Part shown: piece by piece, positions 18,501 through 64,000 of the stretch
Position numbering within the stretch: position 1 is the first letter of the stretch
How the letters are laid out: every line of letters begins with the position of its first letter
Assembly (NCBI RefSeq): GCF_963676685.1
Contig: NC_092352.1
Location: 28,396,001 to 28,460,000, forward strand
Reading direction: 5' to 3'
DNA length: 64,000 nt
Origin: Mytilus edulis
Taxonomy: Eukaryota
Notes under the pieces: model-generated
Databases searched by the model: none
Told to the model about the DNA's origin: nothing
Seen by the model: the letters and a program-made list of their open reading frames with translations, nothing else
Made by a program: the position numbers and the translations under genes

Positions 18501-21500
18501 TCTCTTGTGGAGAGTCGTCTCATTGGCAATCATACCACATCTTCTTATTTTCACATATAAAAAATATATATATAATCCAAGTATCTTCTTAGTGACGAGA
18601 TTAATAATTACATTTTAGTAGTCAACATCTGTCCTTTTCATATAGATGTCAAAATATTTAACAAATACCTCATCATTGGCTATTTCTGATGTTAATGAAT
18701 CTGGCTGTAAATGGCACAATTGGATTTCATCAAATATTCTTAATACATCTAAAAATGATATCCTGTTGAAATAAAAAAAAACATAAGGAAGTCAATTACA
18801 CAATCCTCCAACACAAATGAACAGTTGTGCCATGAGTGCTCTACAAAATAGTAATCTGATATAAAAAAAAAATCTATGCTAGCATCTTCTGTTGTTTCAT
18901 ATTCTTTTCTTTTTTTCTAAAACTTCGAACTATTGCAAAAAATAATACATCATTTGATTGTTTAGTTGTTGTGCTCCAATATAGCATCTGCAATGAGGTA
19001 TTGTTTATTTGTTGAATATCTGATATAGATATTACATGGAAATTAAAACCTATGTCACATGACATGAACAATACGCCTGTATTGTACCATGTATCATATA
19101 CCCAGTACCGCACACCTGTTTTTATATATCACACTAAAACATATGTTAGGTTGAACTCTACATTTGCATCAATGTTGTACTAAACATTAATATTTTTAAT
19201 TCTCATATGGCTTCGGTCCTCTGACTATCAGTTATCATCAGGCATTGATGTGTACAGCATGCGGTACCGAGTCTCTTATGAACAGCGGATAATGATGAAT
19301 ATGTTTTACTTGACTGGCTAAACAGCCTTCGCACATAAAGCTAACAGCAGTAAACTTATTTTGTCTGCATGTATAATTCTATATGCATACGTGCAGTAAA
19401 AAAAAATTGAAGTGAATTTGATATAAAAGTTTTAGGTACATCAATTTTTTCAAGCAAATAAAGGCAACAGTAGTATACCGCTGTTCGAAATTCATAAATC
19501 GATTAAGAAAAAAAAAACAAATCGGGGTTATAAACATCTTTGTGAATAGATAATTACCAGAATTCTCCATCATCTCTAATGACTATTCCAAGTTTTGTCC
19601 GTGCTTCTGGCGAGATGTTCTTAATTTGTTCTGAGCTACAAAATATCAGCAGCCATTTTACCAACAACCTGCTGCCCAACACGCCAATGGGCGTAATGGG
19701 CAGTAAGTAAGTAAGTATTTTTACCAACAAATTTACATGCAAAAATGTGTTTTTAAGGTAGCACAATACAAAGATTTTGTTACTCCCAATCAGACAACTT
19801 TAAACTGATGTAATTCATTTCATCCTTCTTTATATTTTATAAATAAGGTACCAAAAGAAAGAAGAAAGATTAATCTTTCAAATTGTGATAATTTCATTAT
19901 GACATAATTATTACATAATTAATTATTATGTAATTAGTTGCTATATTGTGATGTCCACACTTGAATGAATTTAGCTTCTTTGTTCTTCATAGCATCCCAA
20001 AATATTTTATATATTCTTGTACAACACAGCTTGACCTCCAAAACTGTGTCTCAGATTTCCAAAAACATCAATAGAACAAATTGTATACCCAATTGAATTT
20101 AGTGGTCTCTTATGAATTGATGTTGCAAACTTCATTGAAGATTTATGAGAGAATGAAATACAATAGGAAAAATCTGAGACACAGTTTTGGAGGTCAAACT
20201 GTGTTGTACAAGAATATATAAAATATTTTGGGATGCTATGAATAACAAAGAAGCTAAATTCATTTAAGTATAGACATCACAATATGGCAACTAATTACAT
20301 AACAATTAATGATGTACAATGTAATACTTATGTCATAATGAAATTATCACAATTTGAAAGATTGGTCCTTCTTCTTTCTTTTGGTACCTCATTTATAAAA
20401 TTTAAAGAAAGATGAGCGGAATTATATCAGTTTAAAGATGTCTGATTGGGGATGAAAAATCTTTGTATTGTGCTACCTTAAGTCATGCATTATTCAATAA
20501 AACTAACAATTATTGTTAATATGATTTCTAGAAAAGCGTTACAGCTGTCAAGAAAAAAATGATTGATGTGTTACTTTGACATTTCTATTTTTGAAAAATC
20601 CTGTTTAGTTGTGGAACTGATCTATTTCTTTCTCTGTGTTGCTTAATGCATTTAACATATAGCTCATCTTATCAATTACATAAATACTTAACCACTAGAT
20701 AATCATTAACAACTGGTAAAAATCTCTATGCAACTTAGTCCTGGTTGTCAAGTGTTTTCATACAATACATAAAGTATTAAATGATTCGCATTCTTGAGTG
20801 CACGAGATTGTAGGTTAATGCAGTTCATAGTAAAACTAATGAATTCAGTAATTCATAACAAAAAAATAACACTGAGAATCCTATATATAGCATTTTAATC
20901 AGAGAAGTTTTACCTCCCTCTTTTTCTGTCCTATATTTTAAAGATAAAAACTAAGTAACGTACTGATCAGACCAGTCTCCCGTCCATTCTGAGTTACCCC
21001 ATGGATTTCTAAGACGTAACAACTGTATATTTTTGCCTTTGTATGGTACCTGTGGGAAAATTAAAAAATATCAAAATTAATTTCAATCTAAAAATCAAGT
21101 CCTTTTTTCTTATTACATGTATATGATTTATTCTCATCCATAAATAACAATTTCCTAATATTTTGAGCTAAATTCATTAATTAATATCAGCTATAGGTAG
21201 CCTGTTCCAAGGCAAAACATCTGAACCAATCCAACAATGAGTTATTTTCCAGTGGCAGTTTAAATTTCCATTCCTTCATCTTGGTTGGCCCTTCTTGTTA
21301 AATAATCTGAATTTGTTATCATTTTAAATATACATGAAATATTTGCCACTAGAAACGAGCAACAATCAATCAATAACATCAAAGATCTACAATGAAATAT
21401 ATAATTTTTATCCAATAATACAAAAGAAATGGTAATGTTTATAAAAGTTATGACTAAAGTGCAACAAACATTGTAATGCTTTCTAGCATATGTTAAGGAC

Positions 21501-24500: not shown

Positions 24501-27500
24501 AATTGACATCATTGGTCATTTGACCTGTTTCTTGGTCTTACTTTGTTGAACATTTTGCTGATTAAAATTTCTTTTAATCTTCAATCATAACCACTTAGAA
24601 ATGTCATAAAAATATTGATTCAGGGGCTACAACTCAAATGGGGTTTCTGATTCGTCTAGCAAATAAAAATGGACCTACTGATTATTTTTAACCAATGTCA
24701 GTTTGCCGTTACTGCTTCAGCTTTGAGCCGAAATCTACATTTTGTCTCTACATTCTTTTCTAGCTATGGCAGACATGGTTGCTGAGCAACCAAAATAAAA
24801 AACACAAACTTTATACTAAATACCATAAGACTCATATACCCAGTTTCAGAGAAGAAGATCTTTGAAATAGTTTACATCGATGACGGACAACGGACACCAA
24901 GTTATGTCAAAAGCTCACTTGGCCCTGTGAACCAGGTGAACTTATAAATTGATAAAAAAAATCTCAATATGTGGTCTTATATTTCATATTCAAGTACAAC
25001 AATGAATCTAATAATAGATAAAAGTAGTGAATATTTTTGTCTGTTTGCTGGAGCATGCAACCATACCAGTTTTATGTCTATACAAAGTCATGCAATCTTA
25101 TTATCTGGATCATGTGTTGTTGTTGTTCATTGTTGTTTGTCTATGTTTGTATATTTGTTTTTCCAGAGGAGTTAGCTGTTTATAGTTATTGTACTTTGCA
25201 ATATTTTTGGTAACAGTAAATCCTGCATTCATTTTCATGTAATGGGTATAATACATTGATATTTCTAATTTGATAATATAGAGATATGAAACGTTTCCAA
25301 AAATGTTTTTGGTGGTTACCTGTCTATTTAAATTTTGGCAAGTTGATCTGTCCTATTGAATAAAGCCTGTCTCTTTGGTGTACGTCTAAAAATACAAGCA
25401 AAGTCTAAAACTCTTTGTCAAAATCTTGATCTATTGGTACACATCTAAACATACCTCCATGATCTCTGTCAAAATCTTGGTCTATTGGTACACATCTAAA
25501 CATACCTCCATGATCTATGTCAAAATATTGGTCTATTGGTACACATTTAAACATAACTCCATAATCTCTGTCAAACTCTTGGTCTATGGGTATGTGTCTA
25601 TACATACCAGCGCAGAATTTGTTAAAAAAAAAAATTGTACCACCCCTAAACATACCTGCATAATTTTTGTCAAAATCTTGTTCTTTCTGTACACATCTAA
25701 ACAATAGTTTAGGTTGGGTAGATACCACAGCTGCCCCTGCTATGAACCAACAGTTTCCTGAAATATTCAACATATAAATACCATGGGAAAGAAAATTTGA
25801 CAGAAAGAATATAAAATCTCAATGTGTAATTTTTAATTCTCATTGTGTTTTTTATAAAGTTTTGAAATCTCAGTGTGTAAATTTTTCGAAAAATGGTTTA
25901 AAAACAGTTTTGACGAGAACGACTTGTCATGGTTAAGCAATAATTCAATCAGTTAGCCTCTGGTGGATAGTTCGTCTGTTGTCATCTAATTGGGATTCAT
26001 ACAAAAATGCCCCTGTTATATTAATAATGTCCTCAACATATCAATTCCAGATATCTTTACTTTTTGTGAGTTGTTGCACTAAGAATTAGACACATGTATG
26101 CCGCAAACCATAAATTAGAGCCGATCATCGGTATGTAGATGCAACAGGTAATAAGTTAACAAAATTAATCAAAACCTGCCGCATCGTACAACCGGATTCA
26201 AAGGACCGGCAGTCAAATATCTGCATACATGATAGAAAAAAGCACTGGTTGAAAATGGCAATCGGGAACACAGGTTCTATCTGAAGTAGGATAGCTGGTG
26301 ATAGGGTGTGTGAATACAAATATAATAATATAGCACTGCTAGTTACACAAATATGAAGGACCGCAAGTTGTTTATATCAGGTTGTTTTAATTCAATAATA
26401 GGTTGTTAAAGTTACATTAATTTCCTAACTAACCATAAAGTATTGATACCTAAATAATAGTTCACTGACCAATGTAAATATGATTTGTTTATTCCAGCAT
26501 TTACATCAATCTAACTCACCTAAACTCCCTTGGTCTAAATCATGCCTTGAAAGTCCGTCTTTTACGAATCTAGGGTTGTCAACCAGTTCCTGGAAGTAAA
26601 TATATATTATGTGAATCAAATGATAAATTACTGTATGCTATAACCAGCTTATGTATTAGTAATAGTTTTTTTCCAGAATCTTCTAGAATAAACATTAAAT
26701 ATTTTCCACTAAACATTATTTAAACAAACAACAATCTATCGATCAGCCCATGGGCAGAATCTTCTTACCAGTATATCAGAAGTAGGTTTACTGTTTTTGG
26801 TTGGAGTGAAATGTCAAGTGTATGTGAGACTCGAGTAACTTTATTAGTAGTATCAAGTTGCATATGGCTATCGTTTATCTTTCTTCTTTTTTGTTTTAAA
26901 ATAAATCGACTTAATCAGTTACTGCACTTGATTAAACTCTCAATGGAATCGGTTTCTAGAGTTCAATGCTATATGATACTAGGAATTATGTATTAGATGT
27001 ACCTTGCGGTCTGGAAGTCGTTTAAGCGACGGAAAAGGACATGAAAACTTTGTCTTCTTTCTTGTTACGTCTAGTGGCAATTATCACATGCAATCAAAGA
27101 CGATAACAATTAATGGCTGAAGGACTTTCTTATTACTTTCTTATAATAATACTGAATTATAAGAAACATTCATACGAAGATCCAGAAACCTGAAAAAAGT
27201 CTTATTTTTATTTATTCGAGCGTGAACAAAAGTTGTATCATCATACTGCCTATCATAAGCTTCTTACTTAGATTACTTAGTTTCAGCAGAGACATATAAT
27301 ACAAAGTATTAAATGTCTCTGGTTACAGCCCTTCAACGGTTCCGGTACTTATACATCCTCGGATTCCAAATGTTTGGCTTTGAGCGTTCATGATGAATGT
27401 AAATCCAGAAAAGCACTTCGGACGCATTGAAATGATTAAACGTGTTGTTTTCAATTCTTTAGATCCGATGAGTGGGTCGATACCTCTGCTGGTGACGCTC

Positions 27501-30500
27501 AGATCAAAATAAAAAAAGCCAAACAAGTACAAAGTTGAAGAGCATTGAGGATCCAAAATTACAAAACGTTGTGCCAAAAAACAGGTGAGATTATATATGC
27601 CTTGGATAAGAAAATCCTTAGTTTTTGTAAAAAATCAAAGTTTGGTAAACAGGAAATTTATAAAAATGACCACATAATTGATATTCATGTCAACACCGAA
27701 GTGGTTTACCAATATCCATGAAAATCGGTTTTAAACGAATACAAATGAATCCACAGAAGGTTTGGTAATAATGAATATTGATGCTGATTTGTTGGTAATA
27801 ACCTCGCTTTAATATTCAACATTAATGTAAAAAAAAAATCTTCAGTTCAGGTGCAATAAAATGAAATAAATAATTAAAAAAACGTCTGTCGATATGTGCA
27901 TCTGGGTATTGACTTAGACTTAAATCTGTCACGAGAGAACACTAATTGGGTATTGTCTGGTAGAATGTAGTTTTTGTTTTGTTTTGTTATCATTTACATG
28001 AACGTTCTACTGTGGTCAGATTTAGCACGGAGACATCTATAAAATTACTAGTGCATCATAGACAAAACCAGCCTTTCGTTTCATGTGGTTGTTGTTATAA
28101 TGTTTTTATTTGACATGCATATATCAACAACTATATTTAACGATTTAATTAAATAGTACGAGCACGTAAGATTCCTTGGACTCAGGGTATCCTGATAATT
28201 TAATTAAATAGTACGAGCACGCGAGATTCCTGGAAATCAGGGTATCTAACATTTTAATTAAATAGTACGAGCTCGCGACATTCCTGGAAATAGGATATCT
28301 AACAATTTGATTAAATAGTACGAGCACGCGAGATTCCTGGAAATCAGGTTTCTAACAATTTAATTAAATAGTACGAACACGAGAGTTAATATGGGTGTGA
28401 TGTTTTTAGGGGATTGGGTTTTTTTAATTAACTGTTTTGGAATGAATTTCTGAACAATACAAAAACAGCAGATTGTTTATCGCTTGTTAACGTCAGCACA
28501 AAACTAAACAAGGTTTTACACTAGTTTTGGGGCCTTTTATAGCTTGTTGTTCGGTGTGAGACAAGGATCCGTGTTGAAGTCCGTATCTTGACCTATAAGC
28601 GATACTTTTATAAATTGTTATTTGGATGGAGAGTTGTCTCATTGGCACTCATACCACATCCTTCTATATCTATTTACATCACGACGAGGTTCATATTCAT
28701 AGTTTTGCCTCTTGGATTACAACTCTGTTTCTGTGGATGCCAATAAGAATGACAAACAAAACACAAACTAGTCATTGCTTGCGCGTGGTATTGAAAAATC
28801 ATAGCGAGCATGATCATGAAGTTTTTTAAAGGTTGCTCCAATAGCTAGGTCCGTATTGAGTTAGATTAACTAACAGCACTGTGATATATTTCCATCCATA
28901 CTCTTTAACTTTTTTTACTTAAGAATTGAATGCTTCTTTTTGTAACTTCATTGGGGTGTAAAAGCGTTGACCGAAGTACATTTTGTATGACGCGCGGAAG
29001 GCGCTTGATTCTAAAAATGTGCGCACGGTCAACGCCTTTACAACCCTATGAAGTTACAAAAAGAAGCATTCAATACTTATAATTACATTTTTAAGCTACG
29101 ATCATGAAAACACGAATTTTATAATTGTTTTATTTAATACACCTGTGCACTTTATTGTGGGACCATGTGTTATCATGAATGAAAAGTTTTATTGAGTAAT
29201 GCAATTGCTTAAGGAATAACACGTGATGTGCAGTTAGCCAATCAGAATAAAGTATCATAATGAAACATACATCTAATGTAATTATTGATAGTCCACAAGC
29301 AGAGGTATCGACCCAGTGATGAAAAATTTGAAAACAACACGTTTAATTATTTCAATGCGTCTCAAGCGCTTTTTTTGATTTACCTTTATCAGGAACGCTC
29401 AAAGCCAAACATTTGAAATCCGAGGATGTATAAGTACCTTAACCGTTGAAGAACTGTGTGACAAAAAAATACCTAAAATTGATAGCCAAATTCATCTAAA
29501 GTCATCTTTGCCTGAGGGAGTTGAAACCTGAGTTTCTTAATAATTTCAAAATTCATAAACGGACAATTTTAGAAAAGTTAGTTAAATTATATCAGTATCG
29601 AAATACTGACTACTGAGCTGGTGATACCCTTTGGGACTGATAATCCACCAGCAGAGATGTCGACCCAGTGATGTATAAATAAAATAAAAACTACACGTTT
29701 AATTATTTCAATGCGTCCGAAGCTCTTTTCTTGACAACTTGCATTGTATATCGCAATTTTGCTATTGAAAATTACAAAAGTATAAATAGTTTCCTTATTT
29801 TGGTTTCAGTTAATTATATTTTATAACGATTTAATTTCGGAAATTTACAATAGAACAGTTAAAAAATAAGAAAGAAATTTAATTAAACGATTCGTAAAAA
29901 TATCATATGACACCGGCGAATTATTGATTAGAGTATGTTTAGGATTCCCAAGGTTTAATAAAATTGAGAATGGAAATGGGGAATGTGTTTTTAAGAGACA
30001 ACAACCCGAACATATAACAGACAACAGCAGGTCTTCAATGCAGCGAGAAACTCCCGCACCCGGAGGCGTCCTTGAACTAGCCAATAAACAAATATCTATG
30101 ATCATCAATACTAGTACAGTGATAATGGACGCCATACTAAACTCCGAATAATACACAAAACACTAAAATTGAAAATCATACAAGACTAACAAAGTCCAGA
30201 GGCTCCTCACTTAGGACAGTCGCAAAAATCGGCGGGGTTAATCATGTGTTTTGAGATCTCAACCCTCAACCCTTCCCTATACCTCTATCCAATTAAGAAC
30301 AGTAAATGATTAACAGTACGCACAGTAAAATTCAGTTCAAGAGAAGTCCGAGTCCGATGTCAGTAGAGGAAACAAAAGAAAATAAACAAAATGACATAAA
30401 TAACAACAGTCTACTCTACTATCAGTTACTGGCATGGCAGGTCCAAACCTCAGTTAAACAGATTGAAAAATTATGCCTTCACCATATGAATATCTATTAA

Positions 30501-31216
30501 ATCTACTAATATTTATACATATTTAGATATTGATTAAATGGGAATAATCTTAGTTTATAGTGTAGTATTCCGTAAAATTACCATTACTATAATGTTGATA
30601 AATAAAGAACCATATACAATAAGTTCACCACATACAATATATGGTCAATGTCAGGAAAATATAAACTTTTTGTAGGAGGCTGAGAAACTGGGGAAGGGCG
30701 AGGTTCTACATAATAACTTTAAGCCCATATTTTTTAATTATGATTTTAAATGTCGAATTTTTAGTAGATTAAGTTTATATATTTTTCTGACATTGACCTT
30801 ATATTGTTTTTATACTGCAACTGAAATTTATACATTGATAGCTTTTTAAATCATAACACAAATGTCAAACTTATTTTCATCCCTTAATGCACCTCTCTGA
30901 TTGTGGAGAAAGTGTTCAATGATGAAATTGACATTATACAAAATATAGCTATGTAACTATATTCAGGAAATAATACAACTATAGTTGCAGTATAATAACG
31001 TTTAGCATGACAATGTCAACAAATTCTCCTACTCACCCCTGGACGTTTCCATATAATGCTCCGTACTCCTGAACTCCGAGGCTGTGAGCCGGAGAATGTT
31101 AGTGAGGATGTACTAGGTGAAAAATCAGGATCAACAAATAGTTTTTCATTCCGAAGAAGTTCTCTTTTAAGTCCTAAATAATCTTCTTGTCTTACGAGCC
31201 CCCTAGGTAAACTCAT
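443..31216 (-). CDS. Classical calpain, copy A (exons 1-18; 3' end runs off the window start)
   Basis: Exon sizes and phases are identical to copy B, with no stops or frameshifts in the joined exons. Triad motifs QGSLGNCW, GHAYS, RNPWG. Window base 1 aligns to ~39699 in copy B intron 18, so exons 19-20 should lie just outside the window. Confidence 0.93.
1168..1889. mobile_element. Non-autonomous TIR element with 8-bp TSD
   Basis: Imperfect TIR (GGGCGTATGACATTTGCGCCGATTTT), subterminal GGCGCAAATG repeats, TSD CTCACATA; empty site in copy B at ~40830. Confidence 0.8.
2981..3850 (+). mobile_element. 5'-truncated CR1/L2-type LINE remnant (RT C-terminus + 3' UTR)
   Basis: [55 protein letters not shown]; in-frame stop and internal deletion; absent from copy B. 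Confidence 0.88.
3877..3955 (-). CDS. Calpain A exon 17 (EF3)
   Basis: [26 protein letters not shown]; 79 nt. Confidence 0.92.
4395..4463 (-). CDS. Calpain A exon 16 (EF2)
   Basis: [23 protein letters not shown]; 69 nt. Confidence 0.92.
4464..5034 (-). other. U12-type (minor spliceosome) GT-AG intron 15, copy A
   Basis: 5' splice site GTATCCTTT; branch site TCCTTAAC (4474-4481) ending 8 nt before the AG; no polypyrimidine tract. Confidence 0.93.
4684..4838 (+). mobile_element. tRNA-derived SINE remnant inside the U12 intron of copy A
   Basis: A box TGGCCAAGTGG, degenerate B box, (CAAT/CAGT) tail; absent from copy B. Confidence 0.6.
5035..5096 (-). CDS. Calpain A exon 15
   Basis: [20 protein letters not shown]; 62 nt; followed by a U12 donor. 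Confidence 0.92.
7396..7487 (-). pseudogene. tRNA-like / Pol III promoter remnant
   Basis: A box TGGTCTAGTGG, B box GAGTTCGAACC, T5 terminator; cloverleaf degenerate. Confidence 0.55.
7957..8047 (-). pseudogene. tRNA-His-like remnant
   Basis: Starts GCCGTGATCGTCTAGT like metazoan tRNA-His; CTGTGAT at the anticodon position; degenerate GTTCAAGCC; T-run. Confidence 0.5.
8826..8931. repeat. 106-bp near-perfect palindrome (foldback)
   Basis: 52-bp arms, 4 mismatches, 2-nt loop. Confidence 0.9.
10460..12489. mobile_element. ~2-kb TIR element with a nested TIR element (11721-12357)
   Basis: Inverted terminal blocks CTTTTCAA, ACACCTACAG, ACAGGTAA, AGGGGTCGTCTCAAA; flanks join in copy B at ~44200; inner TIR TAACGT..GGTA.C.AAATTGC. 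Confidence 0.7.
12555..12672 (-). CDS. Calpain A exon 14 (EF1)
   Basis: [39 protein letters not shown]; 118 nt. Confidence 0.92.
13185..13387. mobile_element. 203-bp MITE with a TTAGGG-like core and 8-bp TSD
   Basis: TIR GCC..CTTTTACTTTA..GGTCCC; TSD CAAATT(A/T)T; empty site in copy B at ~44887. Confidence 0.75.
13573..13603 (-). CDS. Calpain A exon 13 (31-nt linker exon)
   Basis: cag|...[10 protein letters not shown]|gtaagt; needed for the phase 2 to 0 join. Confidence 0.88.
14119..15815. mobile_element. 1.7-kb non-autonomous DNA transposon with CCATGG subterminal repeats
   Basis: TIR CATCCCTAGATTTTC / GAAAATCTAGGGATG; many TTCCATGGAA motifs; absent from copy B. Confidence 0.8.
16124..16341 (-). 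CDS. Calpain A exon 12
   Basis: MRELQRRP...[13 protein letters not shown]...[13 protein letters not shown]; 218 nt. Confidence 0.95.
16816..16964 (-). CDS. Calpain A exon 11
   Basis: [14 protein letters not shown]...FIGFKVYK; 149 nt. Confidence 0.93.
17615..17702 (-). CDS. Calpain A exon 10
   Basis: [29 protein letters not shown]; 88 nt. Confidence 0.93.
17735..17935 (-). mobile_element. SINE/LINE 3'-tail fragment just upstream of the copy A exon 10 acceptor
   Basis: Flanked by duplicated CTAA; copy B shows the empty site gtctaacaatctc. Confidence 0.6.
18669..18762 (-). CDS. Calpain A exon 9
   Basis: [31 protein letters not shown]; 94 nt. Confidence 0.93.
19558..19635 (-). CDS. Calpain A exon 8
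   Basis: [25 protein letters not shown](W); 78 nt. Confidence 0.93.
19757..20477. mobile_element. Kolobok-like palindromic non-autonomous element (TTAA TSD)
   Basis: GGTAGCACAATACA termini with ~320-bp inverted arms, TTAA on both sides; single TTAA at the empty site in copy B (~50550). Confidence 0.85.
20964..21049 (-). CDS. Calpain A exon 7 (catalytic Asn)
   Basis: [28 protein letters not shown]; 86 nt. Confidence 0.95.
21725..21811 (-). CDS. Calpain A exon 6 (catalytic His)
   Basis: [29 protein letters not shown]; 87 nt; donor GTTTGT. Confidence 0.92.
22294..22471 (-). CDS. Calpain A exon 5
   Basis: [11 protein letters not shown]...DMTG...SLMGAGIN; 178 nt. Confidence 0.95.
23683..23836 (-). 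CDS. Calpain A exon 4
   Basis: [22 protein letters not shown]...[12 protein letters not shown]; 154 nt. Confidence 0.95.
25405..25706 (-). repeat. 51-bp tandem repeat of the exon-3 3' end plus splice donor (copy A)
   Basis: Unit GTATGTTTAGATGTGTACCAATAGACCAAGATTTTGACAGAGATCATGGAG; ~5 intronic units. Confidence 0.9.
25656..25757 (-). CDS. Calpain A exon 3 (catalytic Cys)
   Basis: [33 protein letters not shown]; 102 nt. Confidence 0.92.
26520..26589 (-). CDS. Calpain A exon 2
   Basis: [23 protein letters not shown](G); 70 nt. Confidence 0.93.
28141..28905. repeat. Ectopic copy of the calpain upstream region (including the TTCCTGGAA array) inside copy A intron 1
   Basis: Colinear with ~31645-33090; sites at 28227, 28281 and 28334; absent from copy B intron 1 (~60530). 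Confidence 0.85.
28920..29079. repeat. 160-bp palindromic foldback
   Basis: TAAGAATTGAATGCTTCTTTTTGTAACTTCAT ... ATGAAGTTACAAAAAGAAGCATTCAATACTTA. Confidence 0.85.
29961..30495 (+). mobile_element. Interspersed repeat family AATTGAGAATGGAAATGGGGAATGTG (also 35276-35470; 55313-55378 on minus)
   Basis: Three dispersed copies; empty site in copy B at ~60790. Confidence 0.8.
31037..31216 (-). CDS. Calpain A exon 1
   Basis: MSLPRG...FVDPDF...WKRPG, donor gtgagt; 180 nt. Confidence 0.9.
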
Positions 31217-31277
31217 AATTGATGTCAATGTCCTTCTGGAAAACGGGTAAAGCGTTTCCTCTGGGCTACACCGGTCT

Positions 31278-31315
31278 AATGTGAAAGTAGTATTCTAAAT
31301 CCTGCAATTTATATA
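31278..31315 (-). promoter_or_regulatory. TATA box + Inr-like core promoter, copy A
   Basis: TATAAA (31313-31308) begins 31 nt upstream of the central A of TTTCACATT (31282); same spacing in copy B. Confidence 0.55.
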
Positions 31316-31620
31316 AGAAATGATACATCTTTTATACAATGGAAGAAAGATGATATGGATAGATTTCGCTGTGCATTGGTATGATATATATATTTTTTTA
31401 ATTTTGATGTGCATTGATACGATCTATATGTCTCTGAGGGTGTGTATTGATATGGTGTTTGTCTTTAAAGCATCACTATAATAACTGTCTTTGAATTTAA
31501 GTTTTTACATACTAAAATTTATCCTTTTTTTTCAAAATATTTGTTATACTTATAAAACATTTGCTTATCAGTGCTTTGCAGAATGCATAATTGACATATA
31601 TCCCCCCCCTGTTGCCTTTT

Positions 31621-31835
31621 ATTCCTGAAAATAAGGGTATCTTACAATTTAATTAAATAGTACGAGCACGTGATTCCTGGAAATCAGGGTATCTAACAAT
31701 TTTATTAGATAGAACGAGCACGCGAGATTCCTGGAAATTAGGGTATCTAACAATTTTTAATTAAATAGTACGAGCACGCGAGATTCCTGGAAATCATGGA
31801 ATCTTACAATTTGATTAAATAGTACATGCATGCGA
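31621..31835. promoter_or_regulatory. ~54-56 bp tandem repeat carrying TTCCTGGAA (STAT/GAS-type) sites, upstream of copy A
   Basis: Intact sites at 31674, 31728 and 31784 plus a variant at 31622; copy B has a single site at 62055. Confidence 0.6.
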
Positions 31836-32077
31836 GTATAGGTGTGATTTTTTAGGAGATTGGGGTTTTAATTAACTGTTACTGATATAAATTTCTCGAC
31901 GATACAAAGACAGTAGATTGTTTGTCGCTTGTTAACGTCAGCACAAAACCAAACATGGTTACATCGCGACGATGGTCATATTCATATGTTTGCCTCCTGG
32001 CTACAACTCTGTTTCTGTGGTTGCCAATATGAATGACAAACACAAAATAAACTATGCATGGCTTGCGCGTGGTATTA

Positions 32078-32974
32078 AGGTAGCACAATACAAAGAATTT
32101 TTACTTCCAATCTCAAACCCTTAAATGCTGTCACTTTCTTAAGAATGCATGTAAATTAATAAAAGACGTATATATCGATAGATAAAAGATTAATTCTTTA
32201 AATGAATGCAATATTTTTGTTATGCAATTATTATGTAATCAATTATTATGCAATTAATGGCAAAATCGTGGTCAGTTCACCTGAATGAATTTAGCTCTTC
32301 CATCTCTATAACTATACAGGAAATTTATATGAAATCTTAATCAACACAGCAGGAGCTACAAAAGGGTGTCTCAAATTATCATTATATTGTGAAACATCAT
32401 TATATTGTGAAACATCATTATATTGTGAAACATCGTTATATTGTGAAACATCATTATATTGTGAAACATCATTATATTGTGAAACATCATTATATTGTGA
32501 AACATGGAATCTCAAAGTTAATACTGAAACAAGAATGTGTCCAAAGTACACGGTATCGCTATTGTATTATATTCTCTAATAAATCTGTAATTAGTGTAAA
32601 CATCCTTACCAAAAAAAGTAGATAATGTTTGATTAGGTGTAAAATTTGATCTTTACATTCTATCCGATATCTGAGACACTCTTTTGTAGATAATGGATCT
32701 AGGAACAACATATAATAAAATCAACTCTCTCGGGGTAACCATGAAGAAGCTAATTTCAGTTGAAAGTGGAAATTTCTTGTAAAATTTTGTAGACACAGTT
32801 AACATTGTAATTGGTTATATAATTGTTGTATAATACTAACATTGCATTATTTTGAAAGAATAATCTGTTAGCTATCTGTAAAACCACTTTATAATAAATT
32901 TAAGCATTATAAAGAAAGTTACAGCATTTTAATATTGTGAAATTGGAGGTATACAATCTTTGTACTGTGCTACC
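32078..32974. mobile_element. Related Kolobok-like element upstream of copy A
   Basis: Same GGTAGCACA termini; empty site preserved in the intron-1 copy at ~28790. Confidence 0.8.
32380..32505. repeat. 18-bp minisatellite x7 (CATTATATTGTGAAACAT)
   Basis: Direct inspection; lies inside the Kolobok-like element. Confidence 0.95.
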
Positions 32975-33401
32975 TCAGAAAAATCATGGCGAGCATGCTC
33001 ATGAAGTTTGTGGAAGGTTGCTCCAATAGCTAGGTCTGTATTGAGATAGATCAACTAATAGCACTTGGATATACTGCCATGAATACTCTTATACTTTTAC
33101 GGAGGTACATGTTGCTCTTAGAGGTGAGATAAAATATCCCACTGTAGAAAAATAGACTGCGGCTTTATAAAAAATGATTGCTATTCAGACACATATCTAC
33201 CAAAGATCAAATGGCGTGGATGTAAGTTATTATAGCCATTTCAATACTATGAAAACATGAAAGATTACACATTTTTTCTGCACAATTTCACAATTTAATG
33301 ACAAATGTCAAACTATTTACGCATTCATTTGTGCTAAGGAATGGACAAGAAATGAAAATTAACGTATTCAGTTGTTTTCAGTCACCAATTTTACCAAATA
33401 A

Positions 33402-33822
33402 TTATCAAAGGTACCAGGATTATAATTTAGTACGCCAGACGCGCGTTTCGTCTACATAAGACTCATCAGTGACGCTCATATCAAAATATTTATAAAGCCA
33501 TACAAGTTCAAAGTTGAAGAGCATTGAGGATCCAAAATTCCAAAAAGTTGTGCCAAATACGGCTAAGGTAATCTATGCCTGGGATAAGAAAATCCTTAGT
33601 TTTTCGTAAAATTCAATGTTTTGTAAACAGGAAATTTATAAAAATGACCACATTATTGATATGCATGTCAACACCGAAATGTTGACTACTGGGCTGGTGA
33701 TACCCTCGGGGACGAAACGTCCACCAGCAGTGGCATCGACCCAGTGATGTAAATAGTTATCAAAGGTACCAGGATTATAATTTAGTACTCCAGACGCACG
33801 TTTTGTCTACATAAGACTCATC
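33402..33822 (+). mobile_element. Interspersed repeat family TTATCAAAGGTACCAGGATTATAAT (other copies ~5815-6015, 9590-9760, 15822-15970, 27480-27700, 38157-38203)
   Basis: Multiple dispersed copies in both orientations; here one ~355-bp unit plus the start of a second. Confidence 0.8.
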
Positions 33823-34720
33823 CAAAGAATTAATTTCCTTTGAAAACTTTTATAAATGACATGAGTAATATAACTGCAAAATATAAGTAAAAGTGTAAAA
33901 CAACAATGTGACACACTTTATAGCATATTTCGTTTCGCCTATGTATAATGGATTGACCGATTGGGCTCAAACTCTCATCTTTGATGGGTAACATACTTAA
34001 ACGTTTTATGTAAATTACAAAAATGTCTAGAATAAACTATTAACAATGCATGGACTCGATAATAAGTATCAGCAATTCGTGTTTATTAGTTTAGACGTCA
34101 TCTGATTAACCATCGAAATTACTGCCGAAGATTGCCGACGGTTAAAAACCCCGATAAGAACACAAATATAAATAAATTGCTACCTCATGTAATGGGATTT
34201 TTTTAGGTCTATTTGATTTCCTAGTGTAGTTACCTGTATAAGAATTGTTTTGTGTGTGGATCGAATCGAACGGTTGTCCTTGTTCTGCTTTCCATGTTGA
34301 CATTTTTTTCCTTTTAATACATGTGCAACCCATCTCCAGCTTTAGGGTAAAATTGAAGGTCACATAAATACGGATTCATTGAAGTCGAAGTATTCACTTG
34401 CAAGTGAATAATTTATCAGCGATGATTTAGCCTTCTTTAACAAAATTAAACCAAACTGGCTACTCAAGCCAATAATATTTCATTATTCCACTTCTATCAA
34501 TGACGGGAAAGTTTTAACTGATAGAGGAATCAGTCTCGGAGGGGGATATAAAACTTTAGTGTTAAGAGTAAAATCATGAATATAACTCAATAAATCTGCA
34601 AAAGGTTTTCAGCAAATATCAATTATTTTGATAAATCACCATAACAAAGCACTCTGCTTGATTCTTAGTCGGACAGGTACTTAGATTAAATAACACTGAG
34701 CATCGGAATATGCTTCATAC

Positions 34721-35601: not shown

Positions 35602-36331
35602 TTTAAGTTTTTTTGTCCTTCATTGAACTGTTGATGTCATCCGTAAGAAGTATTATTATAGAGTACGTTCTACAATTAATCATGATGATTTGGTATGTAA
35701 AAGTAGAGGGTGTTAGAAAAATTCGAAAAGACAAATTAACAAGTTTCAGAAGGCATTATAAGTATATTGCGTGGTCTGCGTACCACGGCTCCTAAGTCTT
35801 ATTGCTCATTGTTAAACAAGGGCTCTGAGAAGGTACTGAAAATTGTTTACATGAACTCTAAATAACAGATTGTTCAATTATATGGAAAGTTTAGGATTAT
35901 TATGTGAAGAACAGACAGGGTTCAGAAAGGGGTATGGCACTGTTGATTATATATTTAATTTGAAATGTCTCGTTGATTTGTATTTATTTAGGAGGAAAAC
36001 CAGGACAGATTTCCCAATAGCATTATAGTGTATGCACAATCTCTGGATGATAAAGCCCTTAAAAACATCTCTTAGTAATCTTTGCAATGCAAAATTCTGC
36101 ACCTATCTAACATTTCTTCATTGGTAAACGGACAAAAAGTCACAGCCAGGACATAAAGTCACAAATTTGGTAGGACAAAAAGTCACAAATAATCGTTGAC
36201 AATTGTTTGAATATATTTGAGAAATATCTAGAAATATAAACTTTTTGTTACATATATTTATATTAACGTTTAAGACATTGTCTTTATATTTCAAAAATCA
36301 AGATTTATCTAATTTTAATCATGCAAAGGAT

Positions 36332-36780
36332 ATAGAATGAAATTCAAAACAGTGTGGCTGTGGCCATTGATTGACACATTAAATTCATCCATTGACTGGG
36401 ACAATTTACGTGAACGTTTGTATGTAACGACCACTGTTCACGACGTACCTACGATAGACATTTAAACTGTGGGGTCACCAAAGGTTTCTTGACGCCTTTA
36501 ATTATAAAATAATTCGAAAAATTAATCAGGAAAAACCTTTATGTTTTGATTTATATACTTGATATAAATCAAAACATCGTGTTATTTCTGATTAATTTTT
36601 CGAATTACTTTATTAAGGTGTTGAAAACCTTTGGTGACCCCATAGTTTAAGTGTCTTTAAAAAGTACATAGTGAGCAGTGGTCGTTACATACAAACGTTC
36701 ACCTAAATTGTCCCAGTCAATGGATGAATTTAATGTGTCAATCAATGGCCACAGCCACACTGTTTTGAATTTCATTCTAT
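36332..36780. mobile_element. ~450-bp foldback MITE nested in an element with GGACAAAAAGTCAC terminal repeats (~36125-37000)
   Basis: Arms are near-perfect reverse complements over more than 200 bp. Confidence 0.85.
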
Positions 36781-38291
36781 TCGTTGGCACCGCGAAGCCT
36801 TTTAAGTGCCAATCCACTAAGACATTTTGTTTTCTTAAAAATTATTTGATCATCTTTGATATTGTTTAGAAAAATTTTGTTTACAAAGTTGGTTTTTATA
36901 CAATAGTTCAAGAAAATACATTTTTTTAAGATGAGCATTTTCTTATTCAAAGAAAACTATCTAAAAAAATAAATTGTGACTTTTTGTCCTGTGATTTTCT
37001 GTGTATGACAGTTGTAAATTTCCCTCTTTTCATTCGATTCAATCTACCAATTGTTTTAATCGTAAATTTATTCTCATCCTCAATGATTCCTCAATATATA
37101 GCGTTGGATGTTAAACATGTGAAAATCAATCAATTAGTATTGAACACCACTATGGGGAGTTAAATGTGATTTTTTTTTTCTTAAAATAAATAATCAGTCT
37201 TGTATATTTGAAGAACCAATACTCAGTTCTATGTAACAATTAAGTTTTGAATTTTTATCTCCAATACTGCTTAACAGAGTGACTTCATATTTAGTCAGGA
37301 GCTCAACAATGATGAGTTGTAAATGGGTAGCTTTTTCAGATCTGTTGAACACCTAGTTTCTTTTTTCCCCTATACTTTGAACAACATGTAAATGCATGTC
37401 TAGCACACCAACATGTGTATTTAATTTAAGACCAACTTAACGATTAGTCTGATTCTATGAATGATGCTTATAGTTATTTATTTATGTGGAGTTATAGATA
37501 AACAACACCTACCCCTACTTTTTTCAACATCTTTTGCTAGTCTAATGATATTATCCTGTCCACTCCTCTTGCAAGAGACTGAACCAAACCATGGCTAGCA
37601 ATGATGGTTAGCTTTGGATATTCCAAAGATAGGTTTGAACTTATAAAATATAAAGTAGAAAATGACATTGTGTAGGAAAGATTATCACACATTTGTTAAG
37701 AATACAAATTGTATTGCCTATATGCCAAAGCCACAGATTTGCCCTTGTCATATTTCTGCAAGGTCAAATAACCGTTTATCTTGCTCTGTTATTAATGCCA
37801 GTATAATGAAGTGTTCCTCATCAGGGTCAATTAAAATGACAGCAGAATTTGTTGAAGAAATGAAAAAAAAAATACCAGTGCTTTGAAAATTTTAATGTTA
37901 AAGGACTATAGTTTTGAACTGTAGGGGACCTGTGATAAATGATTTCAGTGAAGGAAAATAAATTAATGTGGTGTGATCAACATTCTTTCCACTTACAAAC
38001 ATTTGTTCAATATGTGATAAATAGATTATAGTAGGTCCTTCTTCATGTTGGCCTTTGTATCAACCCATAGGAGATCTCAGCCAAGTGTGTTGGGCTGATA
38101 TGAGAGTATCTGGATGATTCTAAGGCTGATACTGAAACAAGGCATGTTCTAACTATAGTTATCAAAAGTACCAGGATTATAATTTAGTACGCCAGACGCG
38201 CGTTAGATGTGTAAATGTTTCATTGAAATAAATTGTTGTTAAGCTATGCCTGCTCAAAGAATAATTATGTAAGATAAAACAAGAAACATAC

Positions 38292-60100: not shown

Positions 60101-61159
60101 ATCAACGAAAATTGGTATTAATCGAAGACAAATTAATCCACAGAAGGTTTGGCAATAATGAATATTGATGCTGATTTGTTGGTAATAACCTCGTTTTAAT
60201 ATTGAACATTAATGTCTCAAAAACCTGAAAAACAAATCTTCAGTTCAGGTGCAATAAAATTAATTAAATAAACGTCTGTCGATCTGTGCATCTGGCTATT
60301 GACTTAGACTTAGATCTGGCACAAGACACCAATTATTGTCTGGTAGAATGTAGTTTTTGTTTCGTTTTGTTATCTTTTACATGTACGTTCTACTGTGATC
60401 AGATTAAACATGGAGACATCTATAATATTACTAGTGCATCATAAACGAAACCAGTCTTTCGTTTCATGTGGAAATTAGTATACTGTTTTTATTTGACACA
60501 TATATATCTGTATATATCAACAACTATATTTATTCAACATAAAATCTGATCTATAGCAAAACCACCATAGACAACTCACATTGTATATTGCAATTTTGTT
60601 GTACAATAACAAAAGTATAAAGTTTCCTTATTTTAGTTTCCGTTCATTATATTTTATAACGATTTCATTTCGGAAATTAACAATTGAACAGTTAAAAAAT
60701 AAGGAAGAAATTTAATGAAACGATTCATAAAAAAAACTCATATGTCACCGGCGAATTATTGATTAGAATATCTTTTGGATTCCCAAGGTTTAAATCTACT
60801 AATGTTGATATATATAGATATTGATTATATACACGAGAATAAACTTAGTTCATAATATAGTGTAGTATTCCGTAAAGTTACCATTACTATAATATTGATA
60901 AAAATAGAACCATATACATTTAGTTCACTACCTGTTAATAACGTTTAGCATGACAATGTCAACAAATGCCCCTACTCACCCTCGGACGTTTCCATATAAC
61001 GCTCCGTACTCCTGAAATCCGAGGCTGTGCGCCGGAGAACGTTAGTGAGGAGGTACCAGGTGAAAAATCAGGATCCACAAATAGTTTGTTATTCCGAAGA
61101 AGTTCACTTTTAAGTCCTAAATAATCTTCTTGTCTTACGAGCCCCCTAGGTAAACTCAT
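39105..61159 (-). CDS. Classical calpain, copy B (complete; 20 coding exons, 684 aa; CysPc-CBSW-PEF)
   Basis: Exons join in frame with GT-AG boundaries; total 2055 nt from ATG (61159) to TGA (39105). Motifs QGVLGNCW (Cys), GHAYS (His), RLRNPWG (Asn), DDGEFW, AGGC, NPQF, IPSTF; EF-hand loops [12 protein letters not shown] and [12 protein letters not shown]. Orthology to a numbered CAPN cannot be assigned without a phylogeny. Confidence 0.95.
39477..39544 (-). CDS. Calpain B exon 19 (degenerate EF5)
   Basis: tttag|..[22 protein letters not shown]|gtaagt; 68 nt, phase 1 to 0. Confidence 0.88.
40182..40298 (-). CDS. Calpain B exon 18 (EF4)
   Basis: [38 protein letters not shown]; 117 nt. Confidence 0.92.
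40341..40402. mobile_element. Tiny MITE (CATTGGCGGATCCAG...CTGGATCCACC) with G/C runs
   Basis: Inverted ends, duplicated AAGAT; empty site in copy A at ~590. Confidence 0.65.
42105..42183 (-). CDS. Calpain B exon 17 (EF3)
   Basis: [26 protein letters not shown]; 79 nt. Confidence 0.92.
42544..42612 (-). CDS. Calpain B exon 16 (EF2)
   Basis: [23 protein letters not shown]; 69 nt. Confidence 0.92.
42613..42980 (-). other. U12-type GT-AG intron 15, copy B
   Basis: 5' splice site GTATCCTTT; branch site TCCTTAAC at 42623-42630. Confidence 0.93.
42981..43042 (-). CDS. Calpain B exon 15
   Basis: [20 protein letters not shown]; 62 nt. Confidence 0.92.
43122..43375 (+). mobile_element. Interspersed repeat family AAGATGTGGTATGATTGCCAATGAGACAAC (other copies ~5630, 18395, 22862, 28525, 49375, 57105, 62540)
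   Basis: At least 8 dispersed copies in both orientations, with paralog-specific presence or absence. Confidence 0.8.
44263..44380 (-). CDS. Calpain B exon 14 (EF1)
   Basis: [39 protein letters not shown]; 118 nt. Confidence 0.92.
45084..45114 (-). CDS. Calpain B exon 13 (31-nt linker exon)
   Basis: [10 protein letters not shown], donor gtaagt. Confidence 0.88.
46068..46285 (-). CDS. Calpain B exon 12
   Basis: LRAFQRRP...[22 protein letters not shown]...; 218 nt. Confidence 0.95.
46793..46941 (-). CDS. Calpain B exon 11
   Basis: [14 protein letters not shown]...AIGFDVYK; 149 nt. Confidence 0.94.
47714..48486. mobile_element. Kolobok-like element (TTAA TSD) in copy B intron 10
   Basis: TIR GGATGTA....TCTGA; TTAA on both sides; absent from copy A. 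Confidence 0.8.
48719..48806 (-). CDS. Calpain B exon 10
   Basis: [29 protein letters not shown]; 88 nt. Confidence 0.93.
48990..49140. repeat. (GAT)n-rich tract and 21-bp tandem repeats
   Basis: ATAATG(T/G)TGTGAGCACTGCAT-like units. Confidence 0.75.
49573..49666 (-). CDS. Calpain B exon 9
   Basis: [31 protein letters not shown]; 94 nt. Confidence 0.93.
49691..50062. repeat. 26-bp minisatellite, ~14 copies (AAAAATGTATCACACAATACTCAACC)
   Basis: Direct inspection; explains the three overlapping repetitive ORFs. Confidence 0.95.
50419..50496 (-). CDS. Calpain B exon 8
   Basis: [25 protein letters not shown](W); 78 nt. Confidence 0.93.
50585..51507 (+). mobile_element. HINE/DINE-1-like (non-autonomous Helentron-type) element
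   Basis: 5' AGGTCTTTCCAC..GTGGAAAGACCT hairpin, 3' sub-TIR GTGGAAAGACCT followed by stem-loop CAATTGTTC-TCT-GAACAATTG, T-rich ends; empty site in copy A at ~20510. Confidence 0.75.
52002..52087 (-). CDS. Calpain B exon 7 (catalytic Asn)
   Basis: [28 protein letters not shown]; 86 nt. Confidence 0.95.
52166..52571. mobile_element. ~400-bp MITE in copy B intron 6
   Basis: TIR ATCATTTTCATAACAGC(A/G)TGGACAA. Confidence 0.7.
52951..53037 (-). CDS. Calpain B exon 6 (catalytic His)
   Basis: [29 protein letters not shown]; 87 nt. Confidence 0.93.
53599..53776 (-). CDS. Calpain B exon 5
   Basis: [11 protein letters not shown]...SLMGASIH; 178 nt. Confidence 0.95.
54672..54825 (-). CDS. Calpain B exon 4
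   Basis: [12 protein letters not shown]...[15 protein letters not shown]; 154 nt. Confidence 0.95.
55150..55575 (-). repeat. Homologous 51-bp exon-3-end repeat (copy B), interrupted by TE fragments
   Basis: Units encode [17 protein letters not shown]; most donors mutated. Confidence 0.85.
55526..55627 (-). CDS. Calpain B exon 3 (catalytic Cys)
   Basis: [33 protein letters not shown]; 102 nt. Confidence 0.93.
55785..55965. repeat. Degenerate (CAT)n microsatellite
   Basis: Direct inspection. Confidence 0.8.
56642..56711 (-). CDS. Calpain B exon 2
   Basis: [23 protein letters not shown](G); 70 nt. Confidence 0.93.
60980..61159 (-). CDS. Calpain B exon 1
   Basis: MSLPRG...WKRPR, donor gtgagt; 180 nt. 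Confidence 0.9.
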
Positions 61160-61221
61160 AATTATATGTCAATATCCTTTAGGCAAACAGGTAAAGCGTT
61201 TCCTCTGGGCTACACCGGTCT

Positions 61222-61259
61222 TATGTGAAAGCAGTATTTTAAATTATGCAATTTATATA
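61222..61259 (-). promoter_or_regulatory. TATA box + Inr-like core promoter, copy B
   Basis: TATAAA (61257-61252) begins 31 nt upstream of the TCA at 61226. Confidence 0.55.
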
Positions 61260-61557
61260 TATTTACTTTACAATTCATACTGCATATTAACGCTAACGAA
61301 TCCACACTGTCACACGGATGAAAGACTGAACTTGGATTTAAATATAAAAAAGAAAGGTAGAGAGGTCCCATAGAGGTTGGTCGTAAATAACCAATATTGT
61401 GTAGATATATGCGTTTGTCCTGCTTGTTTACCTCCCAGTTGTTATAATAATGTTATAATTTTCTATATTTTATAGACGGACATAAATCCAAACAAAAGGT
61501 ATAAACATAATAAATGATACATCTTATTTATACAATAGAAGATAAATGATATGGAAA

Positions 61558-61808
61558 GATTTCGCTCTGCATTGGTATCATATACTATTAAAGTATGTCT
61601 TTAAAACTTCGATGTGTAATGGTATGATATGTATCTTTAAAATTTCGCTCTGCATTGGTATCATACTATTAAAGTATGTCTTTAAAACTTCGATGTGTAA
61701 TGGTATGATATGTATCTTTAAAATTTCGCTCTGCATTGGTATCATATACTATTAAAGTATGTTTTTAAAACTTCGATGTGTAATGGTATGATATATTTCT
61801 TTAAAATT
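61558..61808. repeat. ~81-bp tandem repeat x3 upstream of copy B
   Basis: Unit TTTCGCTCTGCATTGGTATCATACTATTAAAGTATG...; not amplified in copy A. Confidence 0.9.
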
Positions 61809-64000
61809 TAGATATGCAGTGGTATGGTGTATGTCTATAAGTAGGGTGTGCATTGGTATGGTGTTTGTCTTTATAGTTTAAAGTATCACTATAACTAACT
61901 GACAATTTCGTTGTTTTTTTTTTTGTTTTTTTTTTTTAAAGTTTTTACATAATAAGATAGAACCTTTTTGTGGTTAATTATATAGTAAATACTTATCAAC
62001 ATTTCCTTATCAGTGATAAGTGCACCATAGACGTATCCCAACTGTTGCCTTCTATTCCTGGAAATCAAGGTATCTAACAGTTTAATTAAAAAGTATGATC
62101 ACGCAATTCAATAGAGGTCTGATTTTTTATGAGATTGGGTATCTAGATAACTGTTCCAATAATTAATTTCTGGACGATACAAGGACAGCATATGTTGTTT
62201 ATCGCTTGATAACGTCTGCACAACACCAAACAAGGTAATGTCGCGATGAGGGTCACATTAATAATTCCCCTCCTGGTTTAAAACTGCGTTTCTGTGGGTG
62301 CCAATATGAATAACAAACTAAATACAAACTATTTGTATTTTTATCCATCTGATGAGTCAAGCCTTTTCAACTGTTATACCACTGTTCCAGGTTAGGTAAG
62401 GGTTGGGATCCCGCTAACATGTTTAACCCCACCATATTCTCTATGTATGTGCCTTTCCAAAGTCAGGAGCCTATAATTAAGTGGTTGTCGTTTTTTTATA
62501 TGTTACATACCGGTAATTGTTTTTCGTTCATTTTTTAACATAAATTAGGCCGTCCCTTTTCTCGTTTGAATTGTTTTTTCAGTGTCATTTCAGGGCCTTT
62601 TATAGCTGACTATGCGGTATGGGCTTTGCTCATTGTTACAGGATATACGGTAGAGACTAGTAGTTGTTTATTTCTGTGTCATTTTAGTCTGTTGTGGAGA
62701 GTTGTCTCATTGGCAATCATACCACATCTTCTTTTTTATACTCATTGGTTGTGAGTATAAAAAAAAACCAATTCATAGCGATTATTCAAATGACGTTTGT
62801 TAAAGGTTGGAACTTTCTCTCAATAATAGGTAATGAATTAAATTAATTAACAGCACTGGGATATGCTGTCACACCGTACTTTCACGTTGTTTCAGTGGCA
62901 CATGTCTCTCTCTCCTCGAGGTGAGACCAAAATATCAGACTGTAGAAAATAAACTGCGGCTGAACAGAACATACGATTTGATATTCACCAAAGATCACTG
63001 AATTGCGTTAATGTAAGCTATAATAGTCATTTCAATCCTCTCCACACCATTACATGACAGATTATATACTTGATTTTCTGCACAATTTCACAATTTAACG
63101 ACAAATAAAACTGTTTACGTAATTATTTGTGCGTAGGAACGGACAAGAATTTACAAGAAAAAGATTACGTTTTTAGTTGTTCTCAGACACCAATTTTAGC
63201 TATGAATTAACTTCCTTTGAAAATGATTTTACAAATGGCATGAATTATATAACTGAAAAATATTATATAAAGTTTAAAACAAAACCAATGTAACATGCTT
63301 TATATAGCACATTTCGTTTCGCCTATGTATGGTATAATGACACACTTCATTTTTCTTAATGAAGTGTGAATGAAGTGTAAATTGGTATCAATATGAACTT
63401 TTTGTAAAAACCCCAGCGTCATGAAGTTTTTTAAAGGGACATTAGCTGGCAAATTCATGTTCACCGATTTGTCTGAAATTCACATAGTTGATTTATAAAA
63501 TACTTAAACGTATATCTAAATGACAAAAAAATATCATAAACGAATAACAATGCATGAACTCGATAAAAGGTATCAGCATTTCGTGTAATTTTGGTTAACT
63601 TAAATGTCATAATTAACAATCGAGGTGACCTCCAAGCCGACTGTCATATCATCCGAAATGAACATAAATATAAATAGATAACGACCACGTGCAATTTGAT
63701 TTAACTAGGTCTGTTTGATTTCATATTGTAGGTGACTGTATAAGAATGATCTTTTGGGGGATCGAATCATATACTGTCACATTTATACAGCGGTACCTGT
63801 CGCTCCCGGAGATGCGACCAAAAATAAAATCACCCTTTAGAAATTAAAGCTTTATAATAAAAATAGGAAGACGTGGTATGATTGTAAGTGAGACAAATCA
63901 GTCAATTATCTAAATGTGGGTAAATTTGTAAGAGTATTGTTGAAAGCCTCCGACAAAGGTTCTACTAAAGGCATTGATTTTAAACAGACAACTCGAAATT

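Follow-up and report, generated by a model that had tools for sequence, protein, structure and literature searches.

How did DNA from upstream of a calpain gene of Mytilus come to lie inside the first intron of that gene, and does it do anything there? An earlier note on this DNA had read an intronic stretch as a copy of the gene's own upstream regulatory block. We analysed a window of 64,000 nucleotides, and all coordinates are positions within it. Four of 24 runs, the contig runs X1, X2 and X5 and the RNA run X24, supplied depth over 26400-32300. The copy of upstream DNA in calpain intron 1 is a fresh instance of a type of event already known. The event is unsurprising in itself because local duplication of regulatory DNA is common. 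It is a well-preserved case of upstream DNA that ended up inside a gene, with a readable left junction. The second calpain gene, paralog B, has one site and an empty intron and is the internal control.

The calpain paralogs and the intronic block

The window contains two calpain genes in tandem, both on the minus strand. It is AT-rich, with a GC content of about 31%.

Beyond position 1 to ~31315, minus strand: paralog A.
~39.5-61.3 kb, minus strand: paralog B.
31315, 31216 and 31037, minus strand: TATA box, ATG and end of coding exon 1 of paralog A.
26517..26589, minus strand: exon 2 of paralog A, with acceptor TTCCAG/GAA, a 9-mer identical to the array sites described below.

We infer a transcription start for paralog A at ~31285. 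Four of the six exon pieces matched Peptidase_C2 or Calpain_III in Pfam. The full-length match of paralog A is P0001, a calpain-B-like protein of M. edulis. It contains Peptidase_C2, Calpain_III and an EF-hand tail, as a classical calpain does. It is 94 to 100% identical to most paralog A exons by tblastn, and the lower identities are from matches that run over exon borders. None of the titles listed in our literature searches describes this calpain locus, and the main text of PMC7653742 does not mention calpain.

Three observations concern the gene models. In both paralogs the intron after exon 3 holds about three tandem repeats of that exon's 3' end, 51 bp or 17 codons (25412-25592 and 55153-55314). 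These repeats are possible alternative donors or a possible exon elongation. P0004, a M. galloprovincialis model, joins the C-terminal exons of B to the 5' UTR and body of an A-like gene. It is probably a fused annotation, and it reveals the same tandem order, B then A-like. P0044 lacks the N-terminal 289 residues.

The block lies in intron 1 of paralog A. The features around it are as follows; those with no strand given are unstranded.

28134..28913: the block, with ~615 bp homologous to A upstream and a repeat insert of ~165 bp.
31621..33098: donor-type region, with the A upstream array (31621-31836), its flank and an interrupting element (32078-32977).
28514..28678: high-copy repeat that entered the block once it had been copied; further copies at 5612-5784, 49369-49496 and 57146-57289.
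28789..28794: empty site of the 32078-32977 element, spanned by contigs 28644-28939.
28914..29285: high-copy element with a foldback head of ~165 bases (hairpin z=-16) and a tail; it abuts the distal end of the block.
29286..29733: second high-copy repeat family, in fragments; also at 27325-27703 and 33398-33822.
60532..60570: uninterrupted site in intron 1 of paralog B, with ~37-40 bases that A is without.

The block is a colinear, same-strand copy of the A upstream DNA at 31638-33098 and is ~86% identical to it. The match runs in three segments. Positions 28171-28515 match 31621-31960 (84.3%), 28674-28792 match 31959-32076 (86.6%), and 28793-28913 match 32978-33098 (86.0%). Strand and order are kept in all three (84-87%), as the earlier note had it. 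Its limits of 28141 and 28905 were nearly right, but the true span is slightly wider. The template is nearby, about 3.5-5 kb away with an offset of 3.5-4.2 kb, and has the same orientation.

The block was said to lack the TATA box and exon 1, and it does. Comparison with exon 1, the TATA box and the proximal promoter gave matches of only 10-15 nt (E at least 0.2). It also lacks the insertion at 32078, whose empty site is at ~28792, and it contains a repeat insertion of its own at ~28514-28678; both had been noticed before. Its reported absence from intron 1 of B is borne out. The only match there is the repeat insert, and the B intron is continuous across the site (A 28139 corresponds to B 60532, and A 29733 to B 60570). 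The A-specific insertion as a whole is 28134-29733 and contains the block, the foldback element and the second repeat.

The 32078-32977 element has terminal inverted repeats and a left TTAA; "Kolobok-like" is a label from the earlier note. It contains a minisatellite of 18 bp x7.1 at 32378-32505. Positions 19747-20057 are related to its left end. Further foldback or inverted structures are at 8826-8931, 36322-36789 and 19747-20481.

The block begins with a tandem array.

28134..28385: tandem array of the block, 4.7 units of 53-54 bp, with a broken site at ~28172.
62054..62107: single array unit upstream of paralog B, with TTCCTGGAA at 62055.
28487..28496, plus strand: TTAACGTCAG motif, found only in the block and in A upstream (31932); B differs.

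The array contains 4.7 units in the block, about 4 upstream of A and 1 upstream of B. Intact TTCCTGGAA sites are at 28227, 28281 and 28334 in the block, all three as first reported, and at 31674, 31728 and 31784 upstream of A. The count of six intact array sites around the A start against one for B is thus confirmed (three, three and one). Relative to the inferred A start, they lie around -0.4 to -0.5 kb and around +3 kb. The six A sites are not six independent events, because they are copied from one unit. The chance of one TTCCNGGAA per 54-base unit is ~4e-4. The TTCCTGGAA site fits TTC-N3-GAA, and each array has three in tandem, where two or more mark a tandem element.

As a correction to the earlier note, TTCCTGGAA also occurs outside the arrays in the window, at 14103, 26587 and 45682. 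The copy at 26587 is, on the gene strand, the exon-2 splice acceptor of A (26587-26595). Both paralogs have kept the copy at 14103/45682. The TTAACGTCAG motif is present in the block at 28487, as claimed, and we take it to be half-CRE-like. GCACGCG lies next to the site in most units (28214-28225 and equivalents; TCGCGTG on the gene strand). TCGCGTG is presumably XRE- or HES-like. STAT is therefore not the sole candidate factor.

Ancestry, junctions and donor of the block

The DNA was copied from upstream into the intron. The intronic copy is the derived one because A upstream is flanked on both sides by homology to B upstream. The 40-base spacer of B has no source in the A insertion (other matches are at most 15 bases) and so gives no sign that B once had the block and lost it.

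The copy arose in the A lineage. The alignment of the block, A upstream and B contained 396 columns, with 274 identical, 66 in which the block equals A, 26 in which it equals B, 20 in which A equals B, and 10 all different. Among the informative columns, 66 against 26 and 20 make the block the sister of A upstream (p<4e-5). The earlier note had seen B-like bases at some positions of the block, and AACAAGG and TTTATCGCTT are indeed common to the block and B. It had taken them to suggest a third paralog. That argument is wrong, since equal rates predict 26 vs 20 columns (p=0.46). Because the block is sister to A upstream, these bases require no third paralog. They are changes in A upstream since copying. 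Of its two proposals, an old duplication of upstream DNA or a donation by a third paralog, the duplication stands on the homology, the tree columns and the contigs. The B-like bases lend nothing to the second, and the case for an A-like donor has other grounds, given below.

The first partial unit of the block ends like A unit 1 (CACGT), and unit I3 has a variant in common with A4. These details suggest that the array already had ~5 units at copying and that the copy starts inside A unit 1.

28132..28150, plus strand: left junction, TATATTT then AACGATTTAATT, 12 of 13 bases like an array unit; bridged in X1, X2 and X5.
29815..29836, plus strand: intron-1 word repeated at the left junction, with the same reading and three extra bases.

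The left junction and the intron beyond the right junction have an exact 13-base word in common. Equivalent array words (6 of 6) reach only 7-8 bases. None of 4000 random 150-base windows reached 12, in a test chosen after the sequence was seen and in AT-rich DNA. Microhomology is present at the left junction in the form of this word, and the right (distal) junction is occupied by repeats. A right-flank word at the left junction points to a partial 5' tandem duplication or to a template switch that lost exon 1.

We read the block as what is left of a single old rearrangement within the A lineage, a local repair or replication accident, and as having little or no function (probability about 0.55). 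The event would have come after the A/B split and after the upstream unit had grown to about five copies. The 5' end of the gene (the start of intron 1, exon 1, the promoter and ~600 bp upstream) may have been duplicated in tandem. Alternatively, a stalled fork may have switched template, and a single event would yield the same product. Short-homology joins (the 7-base TATATTT repeat and the 13-base word) would have removed the second exon 1, TATA box and proximal promoter. Upstream DNA would be left within intron 1. Transposons would later have entered the copy, the original and the distal junction.

Microhomology-mediated template switching and tandem duplication with deletion (FoSTeS, MMBIR) leave short-homology junctions, jumps of a few kilobases and small target loss. 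The block has a short-homology junction, a jump within a few kilobases and a small target loss as well. It differs from such cases in that it has one readable junction, is old and is overlaid by transposons. Wheat VRT-A2, in the available part of PMC8364232, is also an intron-1 insertion of local sequence with loss of target DNA, and its authors proposed alternative end joining for that rearrangement. The wheat insert consists of 160 bp of units that flank the site and has a mapped phenotype, whereas the mussel block is ~600 bp, old and has no known phenotype.

The timing bears on the donor.

27714..31388 (compared with 60101-61584): tract of low A/B divergence, a gene-conversion candidate.

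Non-coding A/B divergence is 91/985 columns in this tract, 1177/6527 in other introns and 253/1254 upstream. The tract covers exon 1 and looks like gene conversion. Synonymous divergence is 0.09 in exon 1 and 0.175 in other exons, which is not significant (p=0.20). Positions 1-1167 against 39699-40838, in the 3' part of the gene, are a second candidate conversion tract. Candidate tracts diverge by 0.09-0.11, about half of the 0.18 in other introns.

The block differs from A upstream at 56/396 columns, and the flanks differ from B at 73/766 (p=0.023). The block-to-A distance is the larger, which calls for patchy conversion at a later time, more rapid change upstream or a different donor. Relative ages are 0.157/0.316=0.50 or about 0.149/0.235=0.63 for the block and 0.099/0.206=0.48 for the flank tract. 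If upstream DNA merely diverges faster, both events may be of similar relative age. Otherwise the donor would be another A-like copy. With 20 lineage-specific changes against 26 in A upstream, the block has evolved no faster than the original. It is therefore no less constrained than the real upstream DNA of A.

The donor may have been a different A-like paralog or haplotype that had diverged by then, with its upstream DNA serving as the repair template once the exon-1 tract of A had been homogenised with B. We consider this doubtful but worth keeping in view. In addition to the distances, it draws on the protein tree, which holds 11 proteins (8 from Mytilus and 3 outgroups) chosen from 57 and may be distorted by conversion. 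Four A-like proteins (P0001, P0004, P0005 and P0044), two of them from M. galloprovincialis, form a clade with 100/100 support and are only 88-91% identical. Among edulis, galloprovincialis and trossulus, the B orthologs have 98-99% identity. An X5 contig (record 24) holds a further version of the upstream DNA. Over 31756-32047 it has 25 differences and 6 gaps against A, compared with 35 and 7 for the block and 55 and 14 for B. Against this donor, exon 1 in X1 at a likeness of at least 88% gave only A and the exact B pattern (14/14 differences). No closer donor was found in X1, X2 and X5, and the B-like bases are not evidence for one.

Two kinds of variation were seen beside this. Contigs ~91% like A that are neither block nor B cover 31756-32047 (X5 record 24) and 27077-27271 (X2 record 11). 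They would represent either divergent alleles or one more paralog. Both within and between species of Mytilus, A-like calpains differ by 9-12%, and the B orthologs (P0003, P0006, P0013 and P0014) by 1-4%. The A-like calpain is a candidate for a daughter gene that evolves fast or varies by presence and absence. PMC7653742 describes dispensable genes and hemizygous regions of Mytilus, and paralog A is similarly a fast-diverging copy beside a conserved B.

It is improbable that the foldback element transduced the block, or that its hairpin caused a break that was repaired from the upstream template. The earlier note had suggested that the adjacent foldback mediated the capture. The element does start within a few bases of the distal end of the block, and its hairpin is very stable. 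No match to it exists at the donor end, however, within A 33050-34000 or B 62850-63500 in the window. Rather than a target-site duplication, there is a loss of ~37-40 target bases. High-copy repeats fill 18 of the 30 bins here anyway, and microhomology explains the left junction. Capture by the foldback is unsupported because it has no copy at the donor end and no target duplication. Nearby repeat copies are only 70% alike, too low for recombination of this age. Recombination between the copies at 29466-29675 and 33534-33751 was ruled out on that identity.

Possible regulatory role

The block most likely does little or nothing. Any activity would be that of a redundant, distal group of motifs ~3 kb downstream of the start. 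From its sequence it is a candidate duplication-born shadow enhancer. Should the sites prove active, paralogs A and B would offer a natural test of STAT-site dosage and of how duplication gives rise to enhancers in bivalves. Our literature search turned up no paper that maps STAT binding sites in promoters of bivalves.

We give a minor share of belief to a working intronic shadow enhancer that doubles the STAT input to paralog A. Each array has three intact TTC-N3-GAA sites in tandem. In the part of PMC2441806 that was available, tandem consensus sites mark real STAT5 elements, some of them intronic, but tandem consensus sites in intron 1 also occur there without binding. The tandem STAT elements TTCNNNGAA of that paper resemble the mussel locus in having several consensus sites in tandem. 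They differ in that the mussel sites are predicted and are units of a 53-54 bp minisatellite, and the published data concern mouse STAT5 and not mussel STAT. The block is present under two organism labels, which is compatible with retention by selection.

The STAT-site enhancer of the earlier note fares only in part. The motif matches to TTC-N3-GAA are real, but no selection on the sites was seen. Deviations number 3/72 in the sites and 29/360 elsewhere in the units (p=0.33), in a test of little power. Six of the 8 A-lineage units have an intact site, and among 46 nine-base windows 10 are at least as well preserved as the site. The sites thus have no excess conservation, and a repeat is inserted ~17 bases from the TTAACGTCAG motif. 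RNA run X24, of which ~19% was read, gave no reads on the array, no A-type reads and single B-letter reads on exon 1, and has no power. The protein cluster of paralog A has 1 member. That of paralog B has 18, including edulis, trossulus, galloprovincialis and californianus proteins, and some of its members are Logan-derived.

The duplication-born shadow enhancers of Ness et al. (preprint, PMC13345019), as presented in the available part of the text, have two homologous non-coding blocks per gene with candidate sites retained, and so does this locus. The homology expected of such a pair is present here (84-87% in three colinear segments). Those elements have measured enhancer activity, and the block is known from sequence alone. 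Unlike them, it comes from promoter-proximal DNA and is located in intron 1.

A more ambitious version combines several of these steps. One complex event would have homogenised the A/B exon-1 tract and placed a promoter-less copy of the STAT array in intron 1. Paralog A, as a fast-evolving daughter calpain, would then carry six working STAT sites, placed to either side of its start, where the conserved parent has one. This would be the birth, open to dating, of an immune-responsive shadow enhancer in a mussel, kept across species. We hold this chain as a whole to be unlikely.

Decoy splicing is a minor rival because the 9-mer equals the exon-2 acceptor on the gene strand. The intronic sites would act as decoy 3' splice sites that send exon 1 into a dead-end transcript and lower the output of A. 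On the gene strand each site reads TTCCAG/GAA, as the true acceptor does, and the first site gives 63 in-frame codons and then a stop. The pyrimidine tracts are weak, however, and the public gene model of paralog A takes the true acceptor. RNA depth in X24 is zero over 27976-28369, which is a powerless test. We think this very unlikely.

Copy number and assembly

The block is low-copy by contig depth, on which its copy number rests and which is itself no copy number. Depth in the array bin was 118.6, 24.4 and 4.4 (X1, X2 and X5), close to the single-copy flank (103, 15.7 and 7.6). Repeat bins of X1 had depths of 1e4-1e7, and 18 of the 30 bins of the region exceeded 10,000. The contrast between array and repeats is two to five orders of magnitude. 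The array bin and the bridging contigs are at single-copy depth in 3 of 3 contig runs. No terminal repeats or target-site duplication are visible at the block, and ~37-40 target bases are missing.

In X1 and X2, contigs run across the left junction (27777-28228) with no differences. These two runs are not independent because study and contig limits are common to both, and they may be the assembled animal. The left junction is bridged also in X5, which has another organism label and comes from another study (27998-28288, 6 differences and 1 gap). The contig 28644-28939, in X1, X2 and X5, covers the empty site of the Kolobok-like element. It enters the foldback by 26 bases, below the 31-base rule for the distal junction. 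None of the contigs listed spans the whole A-specific insertion.

The earlier note would have given up its reading for an ordinary high-copy transposon or an assembly artefact. The low copy number of the block, and the contig that crosses its left junction in the independent run X5, show that it is neither a common transposon nor a misassembly. We set both aside as extremely improbable: identical contigs in X1 and X2 and an insertion that no listed contig spans would suit an artefact, but misassembly cannot give 14% divergence and private insertions in each copy, and the X5 junction and single-copy-level depth argue against either.

A metagenome scan for a 22-base pattern of the array had 0 matches. 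A second scan, for the exon-1 protein, produced 601 pattern stretches, of which 0 were confirmed. Rfam gave 0 matches over 27500-33500.

In run X2, A-specific contigs over 26400-32165 had depths of 10-13, and the B-type exon-1 contig had 20.6. This would fit a hemizygous paralog A, or one whose other allele is very divergent; in X1 the ratio is less clear-cut. Paralog B contains two further minisatellites, one of 83 bp x3.2 in the proximal promoter (61559-61825) and one of 26 bp x14.3 in an intron (49691-50062).
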